From: a virus
Taxonomy: Duplodnaviria > Caudoviricetes
IMG/VR virus record: IMGVR_UViG_3300011415_000011
Coordinates: 1 to 41,203 of that record
DNA: 41,203 nucleotides
Reading direction: 5' to 3' (one strand)
This document shows, in pieces, positions 28,203 to 38,753 of this stretch. Every line of letters starts with the position of its first letter. Within the stretch, counting starts at the first letter, position 1. The translations under genes were made by a program, and so were the position numbers. The notes below the pieces were generated by a model. That model worked only from the letters and a program-made list of their open reading frames with translations, was not told the DNA's origin and ran no database searches.

Positions 28203-28289
28203 GAGTTCCGTATCTCAACTGGAAGAGAGGCGGTATTATGGGGTAAAGCTCAGTTATGCAGGTTATGGGTTCAAATCCCATCGGAACTC
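28203..28289 (+). tRNA. tRNA-like element with an expanded, non-canonical anticodon arm
   Basis: Acceptor GAGTTCCG/CGGAACTC, D arm TCTC-AACTGGAA-GAGA, T arm ATGGG-TTCAAAT-CCCAT; anticodon region is 30 nt instead of 17. Confidence 0.65.
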
Positions 28290-28324
28290 ACCTTGTTAAT
28301 TATTATTTGAAGAGGCTTGGATGA

Positions 28325-28538: not shown

Positions 28539-29405
28539 ATGTTAAACGGATTATCCCTCTTTACTGGAATAGGTGGCTTAGATGTGGCTTTATCTGACTG
28601 GGTACGACCAATCGCCTACTGCGAAATCGACCCCTACTGTCAAGGAGTCTTGCTCTCTAGACAGGCGACATGCGATATCGGAATTGCACCAATCTGGGAT
28701 AATGTATCTACACTCTCTTGTGGACATTTCGACGTTGCAATTGACATCATCTATGGAGGATTTCCATGCCAAGGAATTAGCGTTGCAGGACTTGGAAAAG
28801 GCTTGGCGGACGAGAGAAGCGGACTATTCTTCGAGATTGTGCGTTTGGCCAAAGAAATCAAGCCCATTTTCATATTCCTTGAAAACGTGCCTGCCATCAC
28901 TAGGCGTGGGGGTTTGGAAGTCGTTAGAATCCTTGCCGAAATGGGGTATGATTGTAGATGGTGTGTTATTTCCGCTGCAAGCGTTGGAGCGTTACACCGT
29001 CGCGAGAGATGGTTCTTATTGGCTCACGCCAAGCACAATGGAGCATCTACCAGTGAGAACAGGGGAAGCGTTAAAGAAAAGCATGTGTCGGGGATCGACG
29101 AGCAAAAGAAAGACAGCAGGTCGACTCAACGAACAAGTTGCTTATCCACAGATGTGGCCGACACCAGCAGCGAGGGATTGGAAGGACAACGGCAAATCTC
29201 CTTCGGAAATGAAAAGGAAAAGCCCATCACTTCCAGCAATTGCCATCCGTTTGAATCCAGAGAGCATTGGCAAAAAACTGTGTCCAAAATGGATAAGTGT
29301 TCTCATGGGTTACCCTTCCATGTGGACAAAATTAGAGCCCTGGGCAATAGCGTATGTCCTCAGCAAGCGAAAGAAGCGTTCAAAATCTTAATGGGTTTAA
29401 ACTAA
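28539..29405 (+). CDS. dcm: C5 cytosine DNA methyltransferase, alpha-type subunit
   Basis: Motif I LFTGIGG, IV GGFPCQ, VI ENV, VIII HRRERWF and X RALGNSV; motif IX not evident. Confidence 0.92.
   Translation: MLNGLSLFTGIGGLDVALSDWVRPIAYCEIDPYCQGVLLSRQATCDIGIAPIWDNVSTLSCGHFDVAIDIIYGGFPCQGISVAGLGKGLADERSGLFFEIVRLAKEIKPIFIFLENVPAITRRGGLEVVRILAEMGYDCRWCVISAASVGALHRRERWFLLAHAKHNGASTSENRGSVKEKHVSGIDEQKKDSRSTQRTSCLSTDVADTSSEGLEGQRQISFGNEKEKPITSSNCHPFESREHWQKTVSKMDKCSHGLPFHVDKIRALGNSVCPQQAKEAFKILMGLN
28582..29391 (+). CDS. Overlapping +1-frame methyltransferase beta-type subunit (TRD-like repeats plus motif IX)
   Basis: YWLTPST and MWPTPAARDWKD, then KLCPKWISVLMGYP..WT; true start may be internal (e.g. 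ATG 28948). Confidence 0.65.
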   Translation: MWLYLTGYDQSPTAKSTPTVKESCSLDRRHAISELHQSGIMYLHSLVDISTLQLTSSMEDFHAKELALQDLEKAWRTREADYSSRLCVWPKKSSPFSYSLKTCLPSLGVGVWKSLESLPKWGMIVDGVLFPLQALERYTVARDGSYWLTPSTMEHLPVRTGEALKKSMCRGSTSKRKTAGRLNEQVAYPQMWPTPAARDWKDNGKSPSEMKRKSPSLPAIAIRLNPESIGKKLCPKWISVLMGYPSMWTKLEPWAIAYVLSKRKKRSKS

Positions 29406-36580: not shown

Positions 36581-36844
36581 ATGTCGATCGCGACTACTGG
36601 CAATTTAGGGCCAATGATCTTGCAATCGCTCGCGCCTGCAATGTTATATGTTCCTACGCCAACAATGAATTACATTACTGTTTGTGACAAAGTAAGTATG
36701 CCAGCTAATGGCGGTACTACAATGCGTTTTATGCGCCCACGTGCGCTACAGCCACCTACTGTACAATTAGGAAATTCTGGTATTGATCCACCAGCCCAAG
36801 TGCCTCAAAGAGATATCATTGATGCACAAATGGCATTTTTCGGT
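36581..36844 (+). CDS. Major capsid protein (N4-gp56-like), exon 1 (88 codons)
   Basis: ATG after SD GAGGT; SMPANGGTTMRFMR...DIIDAQMAFFG. Confidence 0.85.
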
Positions 36845-36885
36845 ATAATTGCCAGTGCCGAAAATGAACCCGATTATGCTTATAG
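36845..36885 (+). ncRNA. 41-nt core-less group I-type mini-intron
   Basis: Follows U and ends in G; guide GCCAGT-GCCGAAAA pairs with 5' exon TTTTCGGT (U-G wobble) and 3' exon ACTGGC; removal restores FFG-TGCIINEQV in frame. Confidence 0.75.
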
Positions 36886-37053
36886 ACTGGCTGCATAATC
36901 AACGAGCAAGTGATACTTCAAGATCAAGAGGGTGTTTTGGCTTGGGTGTCAGATAGGCTCGCCGTCGCAATGAGACAAGCGGAAGATTTAATTTTAAGAG
37001 ATTATATTGTTTCTGCTGCGTCACAAATCAATGCTGGCGGAGGTTCCAACGGT
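36886..37053 (+). CDS. Major capsid protein, exon 2 (56 codons)
   Basis: TGCIINEQVILQDQEGVLAWVSDRLAVAMRQAEDLILRDYIVSAASQINAGGGSNG, containing a spine-helix-like segment. Confidence 0.85.
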
Positions 37054-37243
37054 AGAGTTGTTGCCGTTGTAAAATCAGACCTAATCGACTTGGAACTCTG
37101 ACCACGTAATGGTGAAGACAACAAGGCGGAACCCGAAAGGGACCGTGAACGACTAAAGCGGTCAGACACCGAAAGGTGAAGCGATAGTCTAATCTCATAG
37201 GAAACTATGAGAGGTGGCAGAAATGACCACCCGCTTAAGTGTT

Positions 37244-38155
37244 TTAAATACCTTTACGATTAAGATCATGAACTTTATGAAAAAGCTTATCTCTAACTTC
37301 AAGAATAGTAGCGTAGAATTCTTTAAATTTTGGAGAATTTCTGCTTATATTTCCAGTCAAGGGTACGGTTGTTTCAAAAAAATTCATGAGTTCTACACAA
37401 ACAGGTTTTTTGTGTTTGAGATAAGGAAGAATTCTTGGAAGAATATCCCCGAGAGATTTACTAGAAAGACGCCATGTCAAGAAATCTCTATGATTGATAT
37501 CTTTGGATCTACGTTCAACAAAATGAACTTGGCCTCCAAATCTTTCCATAAGCCATTTAAAAATAGGAAATTTGGTGTTTCCACATTGAAGAAGAATTTT
37601 GTAAATAAAATTATCCCTGTTTTTTTGAGTGTATCTAAATATTCCAAGAGAACATTCGGCATCAATGAGGCCAGAGAGATAAACAAAATCCAATTCATTG
37701 GGAACAATTGTCAAAATATGCTCACTCAGAGATGCTTTGTCAGTTTTTTTTATCAAATTTCTTTCATTTTTAACTTTCTTAAGTTGATTCATCAAAATAT
37801 CTTTTTCAATAGGACAAGAAGATTTAATAAATTTGCAGTAAATTTCTGCTTCTTCTCGTTTTTCAATGAGAAAAGGAAGAATTTGTTGCACAAATTTAAT
37901 AGATTTTTTGCCTCTGATAATAAAATGATGTTGAGGTTTCCATTTAGAAGACCTTGTTCCATTGTCTGCAATCCTTCGCACTCCTGGAAAAGTCTTTATA
38001 AGAAACTCAATTATATTTGTATCAGTAGAAGAGATGATGAAAGAACATGCGTATTTAGCTGTTCCAGTGGTTTTTCGGATGGTTTTTCTTATATGAAAAC
38101 ACCCGTCTCCATCTGTATAACCAGCTACATAAGTTAAGGTATTTTGATTTATCAT
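37244..38155 (-). CDS. Double-motif LAGLIDADG homing endonuclease, antisense to its host intron (303 aa)
   Basis: YVAGYTDGDGCF and YLSGLIDAECSL; probable start MINQNTL at 38155. Confidence 0.9.
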   Translation of the reverse strand: MINQNTLTYVAGYTDGDGCFHIRKTIRKTTGTAKYACSFIISSTDTNIIEFLIKTFPGVRRIADNGTRSSKWKPQHHFIIRGKKSIKFVQQILPFLIEKREEAEIYCKFIKSSCPIEKDILMNQLKKVKNERNLIKKTDKASLSEHILTIVPNELDFVYLSGLIDAECSLGIFRYTQKNRDNFIYKILLQCGNTKFPIFKWLMERFGGQVHFVERRSKDINHRDFLTWRLSSKSLGDILPRILPYLKHKKPVCVELMNFFETTVPLTGNISRNSPKFKEFYATILEVRDKLFHKVHDLNRKGI

Positions 38156-38161
38156 GTGAAT

Positions 38162-38190
38162 AGTATCACAGGATAAGGCATTTAAGTCAA
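38162..38190 (-). promoter_or_regulatory. Intron-internal sigma70 promoter for a leaderless endonuclease mRNA
   Basis: TTGACT-N17-GATACT with TG extension, followed by 6 nt and ATG. Confidence 0.7.
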
Positions 38191-38204
38191 CAAGTAATAG
38201 TATG

Positions 38205-38753
38205 TTCAATCCTACGAATTTAGGTGTTAGTGACTTTAGTTTAGTTGCTACTACACTAGATACTAATAATGCGTATAAGTTCATGACAGGTATTGAAGGC
38301 ATGGACAGATTTGGGACCGGTCCTGTACGAAGTGCGTATTTTATGCTTTCGTCAACTGAGCTACAAAGCGATTTTGATGGCCTAGTAGGCTCTGGCTTCC
38401 TCTCACAGTGGAATTATCCTACTAATGCTTCTGCGTTGCCCAGCGAATATGGCTCAGTGTATAACATTCGTGTTCTCACTAGCTCTGAAGCACCAGTTGC
38501 AAGAAATGCTGCTATTAATAACGTTGGTGTTCTTAACGACGTTTATTACAATACCGTACTAGGTAAACAAGCGATTACGCATATTAATCAGAATGGCTTT
38601 AGCATGAATCTGATCTATCGTGATCCTTACTATTCTGGAATGCTTGCACAGAATGCGACTTTGGCAGTTAAATTTGCTCAAGCGCAAGCTATTACGCAAG
38701 ATACAGCTATAAGAAATGTTCTCTCAACTCGCAACAGTGCATTGGGGGTATAA
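38205..38753 (+). CDS. Major capsid protein, exon 3 (182 aa)
   Basis: FNPTNLG...GTGPVRSAYF...SEYGSVYNIRVL; SEYG..YNIR pattern typical of HK97-fold capsids. Confidence 0.85.
   Translation, partial: FNPTNLGVSDFSLVATTLDTNNAYKFMTGIEGMDRFGTGPVRSAYFMLSSTELQSDFDGLVGSGFLSQWNYPTNASALPSEYGSVYNIRVLTSSEAPVARNAAINNVGVLNDVYYNTVLGKQAITHINQNGFSMNLIYRDPYYSGMLAQNATLAVKFAQAQAITQDTAIRNVLSTRNSALGV

Follow-up and report, generated by a model that had tools for sequence, protein, structure and literature searches.

The DNA under study (hereafter the window) is the complete 41,203-nucleotide (nt) virus record IMGVR_UViG_3300011415_000011 of IMG/VR (Duplodnaviria; Caudoviricetes), which bears terminal repeats and for which no match was obtained among the GenBank phages searched. 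Its major capsid protein (MCP) gene, with terminase and P22-like portal genes on its 5' side, is split by two inserts: a 41-nt insert in which no ribozyme core is recognised (the mini-intron) and, downstream of it, an 1151-nt group I intron. The gene is organised as follows:

36581..36844, plus strand: MCP exon 1, 88 codons, whose final U belongs to the G-U pair of the mini-intron P1 helix (alignment to relatives)
36845..36885, plus strand: coreless mini-intron, 41 nt, with a terminal G (no core match)
36886..37053, plus strand: MCP exon 2, 56 codons, residues 89-144 (alignment to relatives, structure model)
37054..38204, plus strand: full group I intron, 1151 nt, guide at 37063-37069, terminal G (pairing; RNA contig joining 37053 to 38205)
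38205..38753, plus strand: MCP exon 3, 182 codons and the stop (alignment to relatives)

Excision of both inserts gives a protein of 326 amino acids (aa) that aligns from end to end with uninterrupted relatives at 87-95% identity, and retention of the 41-nt insert ends translation at 105 aa (stop at 36896-36898). An intact relative that is 95% identical (locus L001) matched TIGR04387 (N4-gp56 family) with 82.8 bits, the cut-off being 60, and was similar to the N4 capsid by Foldseek (E 1.6e-19, TM 0.77). By both of these results on L001, the gene belongs to the N4-gp56-type major capsid proteins. No second capsid-like frame was present among the listed open reading frames (ORFs) of the window.

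Anatomy of the two inserts

The elements recognised in and around both inserts are the following:

36851..36856, plus strand: P10 half of the mini-intron guide, 6 Watson-Crick pairs with the start of exon 2 (36886-36891)
36857..36864, plus strand: P1 half of the same guide, 8 pairs with 36837-36844 including the splice-site G-U (pair probability 0.64-0.92)
36866..36870, plus strand: tether strand, paired to 37042-37046 of exon 2 through 5 Watson-Crick pairs (probability 0.97-0.99)
36872..36879, plus strand: strand of a local 8-bp helix with exon 2 at 36893-36900, leaving the mini-intron 3' splice site in a 13-nt loop
37042..37046, plus strand: tether target, -12 to -8 from the 5' splice site of the large intron (pairing)
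37070..37239, plus strand: ribozyme core of the large intron with P3, P4, P5a, P6, P6a, P7 (37151-37155 with 37185-37189), P8, P9 and P9.1 (pairing check, own profile)
37244..38155, minus strand: LAGLIDADG homing endonuclease gene (PF00961), antisense, in the loop of a P9.2-type helix, start codon at 38155

The P1 (8 bp) and P10 (6 bp) pairings of the mini-intron are far beyond chance. In the relatives, the guide tracks exon changes in both helices across 105 mini-introns located at codon 88, and its P10 half matches each of the four third-base forms that the exon codon takes. The stretch 36872-36879 forming the local helix is the one that serves as tether where the partner intron lies at codon 96. 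No core match was detected by our own profile, made from 43 short relatives, in this mini-intron nor in any of the 155 coreless inserts surveyed below. Having no recognised core of its own, the mini-intron would not be a self-splicing member, and in every feature tested it appears group I substrate-like.

Judged by its anatomy, the large insert belongs to the group I introns, with the core helices paired as expected. It has a 7-bp P1 (guide 37063-37069) and a G at 38204, its core matched the profile with 82 bits (E 6e-25), and one base after P7 covaries with the intron 3' end among relatives. The same profile identified no second group I core in the complete genome. The original prediction that one ribozyme serves two introns is supported. 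Neither intron was matched by the Rfam models, at the gathering score or at E<=10; capsid genes of this kind look frameshifted and dead in annotation, and Rfam misses even the full introns.

A promoter-like site at 38190-38162 on the minus strand stops 7 bases short of the ATG (38155) of the endonuclease gene, which lacks a clear ribosome-binding site, a placement that suggests a putative leaderless antisense transcript. Promoter-like matches near the endonuclease were not above those in shuffled sequences (11 vs 8.1). Opposite this gene there is a stop-free frame of 307 codons (37214-38137, plus strand) without any NCBIfam match.

RNA evidence came from one run (X1), in which contigs identical to the window fork at position 37053 into the unspliced form and an exact join of exon 2 to exon 3 (37053-38205). 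Five contigs of this run fall in 19.9 kb, all of them within the capsid gene and the next gene. A second run (X2) was not used; it is probably DNA, and its joints stem from diverged intronless relatives.

Coreless inserts and their partner introns in relatives

Spliced alignment of the window and 266 fetched capsid-bearing loci yielded 587 intron calls, 24 of which were removed by eye as alignment artefacts. The remainder gave 403 unique intron sequences, 247 with a core, 155 coreless and one borderline (L223 60.2), which was set aside for its core score. L188, identical to the window, and L171, L180 and L225, having no capsid match, were dropped, and the insert L019 88.0 was excluded from the tether counts because the guide finder failed on it. 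Fourteen of the relative loci come from genome bins whose labels are mixed (one being Chlamydiia), and these loci resemble phage contigs that had been binned. More than 40 intron positions are found in this family within a single gene of 326 codons. Coreless inserts occupy only four codons (88, 91, 104 and 114), at which none of the 247 unique full introns was located. All the 153 coreless inserts analysed have a U before them and a terminal G, their lengths spread over all three frames (78/40/35), and the shortest, of 30 nt, consist almost wholly of guide and tether.

These features bear on the possibility that ribosomes hop or shift frame over the insert, splicing being unneeded. The length of 41 nt and the hairpin at the 5' edge do resemble translational bypass elements. 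Such elements have matching take-off and landing codons; however, none of the 137 phase-0 inserts ends in the codon that precedes it and 15 inserts split a codon, while lengths fall in every frame and 153/153 inserts retain the U, the terminal G, P1 and P10. We consider this explanation extremely improbable. The same holds for a dead gene or an assembly artefact: despite the want of a cultured relative among GenBank phages and a mini-intron junction unseen in RNA, 108 different inserts with compensating pairs occur at the same codon, the exons remain close to those of intact genes at the identity given above, the genome is complete and lacks another capsid-like frame among its listed ORFs, and RNA from the capsid region is present.

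According to the original prediction, the mini-intron makes the phage dependent on the large intron, and a phylogenetic test of whether it ever persists alone was proposed. The dependence holds under that test. The next intron downstream bears a core in 153 of the 155 coreless inserts (120 seen whole and 33 with their start visible); the remaining two are truncated by the end of their contig, although one of them still shows the first bases of the partner, so that no insert was shown without one. Since most loci had been found with patterns for the mini-intron only, the partners had not been selected for. In addition, among 75 distinct genes picked by exon 3 similarity alone, 20 had a mini-intron and a full intron, nine a full intron only, 46 neither and none a mini-intron only. 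Partners are always downstream, 6-56 codons off, at codons 94 to 144, and that of the window, 168 bases downstream, is the most distant found. As to a possible specialised lineage of partner ribozymes, in a tree of partner cores 28 label changes were counted vs 78 in shuffles, from an alignment that is confounded because endonuclease inserts split many of the cores.

Some full introns seem tied to mini-introns in return. Among loci L001-L080, full introns at codons 96, 101, 116 and 122 have a coreless insert directly upstream in 19/19 unique cases, and those at codons 120 and 144 in only 2/9. Two consecutive pairs of mini-intron and partner were observed in the single genes of L052, L063, L092, L099, L172 and L235.

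The tail of the mini-intron, from the guide to the last G, pairs with the exon just 5' of the partner's P1. The mean tail pairing energy peaks at the positions -18 to -8, being -10.5 kcal/mol there and about -4 kcal/mol elsewhere, and this pairing beats that of shuffled tails at p<=0.05 in 138/152 cases. When up to seven candidate sites were compared, the best-pairing one was the true partner in 100/118, and in 1476 comparisons with a swapped exon of the same class the own exon paired better in 1221 and worse in 95. At L147, whose mini-intron is identical in L132 and L168, the tail favours the intron at codon 101 (-11.4) and skips a complete one at codon 94 (-5.2). Upstream full introns of the same genes are never the target.

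In the window the tether abuts the 7-bp P1 of the partner. The five pairs of the window and of L009, which differs by one compensatory change, are in a register common to ten codon-120 pairs (9/10 at -8), and among control positions 0.8% and 3.2% attain it for the window and L009, respectively. What links a mini-intron to its partner would be this predicted tether, and not splice-site likeness.

Self-splicing of the mini-intron through exon structure, as claimed for fungal rDNA inserts of 63-75 nt, or its removal by a host or phage protein would leave both the strict downstream partner and the partner-specific tether unaccounted for. P1, P10 and a helix that the intron forms with its 3' exon are common to the mini-intron and the fungal inserts; these are, however, drawn with a P7 in the cited passages (PMC3160393), and the phage mini-introns go down to 30 nt and have no core match. 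Either route is therefore very hard to credit.

Several longer coreless inserts were also found. Thirteen unique ones at codon 104, of 946-987 nt (including L040:1976-2951, L044:4694-5665 and L064:4729-5681), keep guide, tether and terminal G within their last 40 nt and carry in the P1 loop a sense-strand ORF of 288-296 aa, which was of the LAGLIDADG type in 3/3 tested; they are candidate mobile introns without a ribozyme. Another codon-104 insert of 325 nt (L234:2699-3023) has an ORF of 74 aa without NCBIfam family. A GCAGCATAA-like motif or a small hairpin recurs in the P1 loop of many longer mini-introns at codons 88 and 104 and of some full introns. Full introns at codon 181 (e.g., L086, L088 and L095) have the same P1 guide as the codon-88 mini-introns and a similar exon context, and are a possible source of them.

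Splice sites, exon skipping and splicing order

As originally predicted, the two inserts are alike in their phase (0), in the CGGT before them (with the Gly codon GGT) and in the GCCG of their guides (at 36857 and 37063); both also end in G. The further proposal that this similarity of the 5' splice sites matters was not supported. The exon ends of mini-intron and partner share four bases in only 2/152 pairs (the window phage and L009), and two or fewer in 97/152. The CGGT context is found in 91/105 mini-introns at codon 88 and in 11/12 introns at codon 144, irrespective of pairing, and G88 and G144 are conserved residues (57/80 and 66/80 alignment rows). A U at -1 is required by the chemistry of group I introns. 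The match between both CGGT sites is real yet close to expectation. Furthermore, five genes (L039, L093, L102, L134 and L269) have a mini-intron at codon 88 and an intron at codon 144, both after CGGT, and in them the partner is another intron. The resemblance looks incidental; the mini-intron has its own guide and that of the partner is not needed.

Alternative splicing had been proposed from the same resemblance. Joining exon 1 to exon 3 does stay in frame, leaving an open frame of 270 aa without the 56 aa of exon 2, as had been stated. Two routes could lead to it, pairing of the large-intron guide with exon 1 in four in-register pairs, or cleavage at the mini-intron P1 followed by use of the end of the large intron, and both have precedent among complete tandem introns in the passages cited (PMC10136302, PMC11878797). 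Skipping is reported there as real in Twort orf142 and in >47% of SIOphi polymerase transcripts (PMC11878797), and in tandem introns that were engineered it is driven by an alternative P1 at a distal site (PMC10136302).

The following observations nevertheless weigh against a role for an exon-skipped capsid isoform. The four pairs with exon 1 compare with seven at the cognate site, and the four-base likeness of sites is lacking in 150/152 pairs. Skipping is in frame in 74/152 pairs and shifts the frame in 78/152. In 118/119 cases the mini-intron can form a longer P10 with exon 2 than it can with the exon joined by skipping, reaching six bases vs two with exon 3 in the window. Residues 89-144 comprise the end of a core strand, a short helix and the whole 28-residue spine helix (105-132) in a model with a predicted local distance difference test (pLDDT) score of 92, built on an alignment of 80 rows (a shallow alignment had given a pLDDT of 31). 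The segment is present in all the 78 homologue rows, the lowest fill, 40 of 56, being in a fragment. It is therefore very unlikely that the large-intron guide recognises both CGGT sites and that the resulting 270-aa protein is made and used. Some low-level skipped RNA may occur, and a useful capsid protein from it is unlikely.

Taking these data together, the mini-intron, a coreless insert of group I type that supplies a P1, a P10 and a terminal G itself, is in our judgement quite probably removed by the core of the downstream 1151-base intron, its tail being predicted to be tethered at exon positions -12 to -8, and this would likely occur before the large intron removes itself, so that a single capsid protein of 326 residues results. 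The process would be as follows. The sequence accommodates the P1, P10, local helix and tether of the mini-intron as well as the P1 of the partner and a complete core. The tether helix would stack on the partner's P1, so that the two P1 helices come together with their feet at the linker to the core and either could dock. Free guanosine would then attack the 5' splice site of the docked mini-intron P1. Afterwards, the long P10 and the loop-presented terminal G of the mini-intron would outcompete the terminal G of the large intron, and in consequence exon 1 would be joined to exon 2 and not to exon 3. P10 is indeed longer in mini-introns (mean 5.8, n=152) than in full introns (mean 4.0, n=247). 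Finally, the large intron would join exon 2 to exon 3, the step of which the X1 contigs give a thin trace. Exon-skipped RNA would be a by-product and not an isoform.

The productive order would be the mini-intron first, since the tether is bound to exon 2 and the core is lost from there once it has spliced itself out. This is the simplest productive path, plausible from the geometry, and the one toward which we lean. In the other order, translation of the messages would end at 105 aa if the released intron did not bind again. In unspliced RNA, ribosomes would stop before the partner's splice site in 138/138 short mini-introns, and the 33 mini-introns whose length is a multiple of three all contain a stop (23.5 expected). 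In those of length 3n+2, internal in-frame stops are rarer than in shuffles (21/74 vs 55.6), and the stop is just inside exon 2.

A switch of the order by sequestering of the partner's P1 was considered and rejected as a general rule. In the window the probability of this P1 is 0.26-0.58 with the mini-intron and 0.86-0.94 without it; the effect is absent in L009 and across the 132 members of the family, in which the mini-intron makes P1 slightly more stable.

The same catalyst could also act in free order, the large intron splicing first and the released ribozyme, or that of another transcript, removing the mini-intron in trans. The large-intron guide can still pair with the exon 2-exon 3 junction (-13.8 kcal/mol), beside the tether target. 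Across the family, folding predicts no blocking of the partner's P1 by the mini-intron, so that the large intron may well be free to splice first, and cores that splice in trans in vitro are described in the passages of PMC2532722. Against this, partners are always downstream within 6-56 codons, the tether aims at one particular P1 foot, and five pairs would presumably be of little use between separate molecules. We regard free order as unlikely, and tethered removal by the neighbouring core remains the preferred explanation.

Some results weigh against tethered, mini-first removal. The spliced RNA joint is a single contig of depth 2 whose short side has 30 letters, the standard being 31, and the X1 contigs cover neither exon 1 nor the mini-intron junction, so that we infer removal of the mini-intron here. 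A P9.0-like pairing able to position the terminal G was not visible in the mini-introns, and folding across the family shows no order switch. The tether class of the window (codon 144) is the weakest, 0/2 cases beating shuffles, and for both an unconstrained test chooses the local stretch used with codon 96; the window tether being weak alone, its case rests on the register common with the codon-120 class. A targeted scan for more codon-144 pairs gave L009 again only (1/11 loci), the other 10 of 11 pattern matches being non-capsid genes, and codon-98 pairs fit the fixed tether window poorly (1/5). Family counts refer to unique sequences in 14 site-pair classes and not to independent events. 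In addition, the in vitro precedent with the Tetrahymena intron needed 10-100 mM Mg and 55-65 C in the account cited (PMC2532722).

Elsewhere in the window, positions 28539-29405 contain a cytosine methyltransferase-like gene (TIGR00675, below cut-off), overlapped nearly from end to end by a frame of 269 codons shifted by one base (28582-29391) without family match. A tRNA-Pro (ggg) was called at 28203-28292, with 90 nt and an over-long anticodon region.

Relation to known splicing systems

Group I introns are taken as self-contained, each with the ribozyme that removes it. With rather more than even probability, the inserts described here form a natural class of introns that are not autonomous, the substrate being one part and the catalyst another: a cassette of 30-80 nt whose guide names the splice sites and whose rewritable address pairs beside the P1 of a ribozyme 18 to 168 bases away and can bypass a nearer intron. 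Those with LAGLIDADG genes would be mobile introns without a ribozyme. If true, one RNA catalyst serves two introns of an essential, highly expressed gene, offering a small system for testing how self-splicing could give way to a splicing catalyst that introns share, and the tether rule is a possible compact means of guiding a ribozyme to another intron. The observation that prompted the original prediction is real, and the putatively borrowed ribozyme with its tether is more interesting than alternative splicing. To it we have added the evidence that speaks against a part for similar splice sites or for skipping, the counts of partners predicted by the tether, the partner at 168 nt and the LAGLIDADG-bearing coreless inserts. 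A natural coreless intron spliced by a partner was not found in the open-licence literature, searched by titles and abstract openings.

Introns in the major capsid gene, as here, are described for LittleE (PMC3706429) and for the crAss-like Zeta MCP (PMC7886860), and LittleE also has a LAGLIDADG-like gene on the opposite strand, as in the window. The passages cited from both papers describe neither a coreless intron nor a shared ribozyme. Tandem introns (Twort orf142, Coxiella 23S, SIOphi polymerase and engineered Tetrahymena) resemble the phage arrangement in the short exon between them and in one catalytic centre using both sites, according to the passages cited (PMC10136302, PMC11878797). 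In the exon-skipping pairs of those accounts both introns are complete ribozymes and the exon is skipped, whereas the phage has one core in its genome and pairings that favour inclusion.

The 'degenerate' PaSSU introns of the fungus Phialophora (63-75 nt) are, like the mini-intron, tiny, with a P1 G-U, a P10 and a helix that joins their middle to the 3' exon. As far as the cited passages go, they lie in nuclear small-subunit (SSU) rRNA, are drawn with a P7, end in U and are reported to splice without a partner intron (PMC3160393), whereas the phage mini-introns lie in a capsid mRNA, end in G (153/153), are without P7 and are always partnered. Pairing of the intron middle with the 3' exon was found in the window as well (the 8-bp local helix and the tether), and a P7 remnant or a terminal U was not.

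Trans excision-splicing ribozymes, in the passages of PMC2532722, likewise use a core to excise a short segment ending in G and join its flanks, aided by P10. In them the guide is in the ribozyme and its terminal G attacks, whereas in the phage the excised segment carries the guide. The shortened Tetrahymena intron acting in trans has a truncated, guide-less core that completes, with free guanosine, the splicing of substrates that supply P1 and P10, as the mini-intron does (Sargueil and Tanner 1993, as related in the cited part of PMC2532722). That system is a laboratory construct of separate molecules working at high Mg and heat, whereas the phage one is natural, lies on one transcript and has a tether in the exon; and the phage core, unlike the Tetrahymena construct, keeps an intron of its own to splice.

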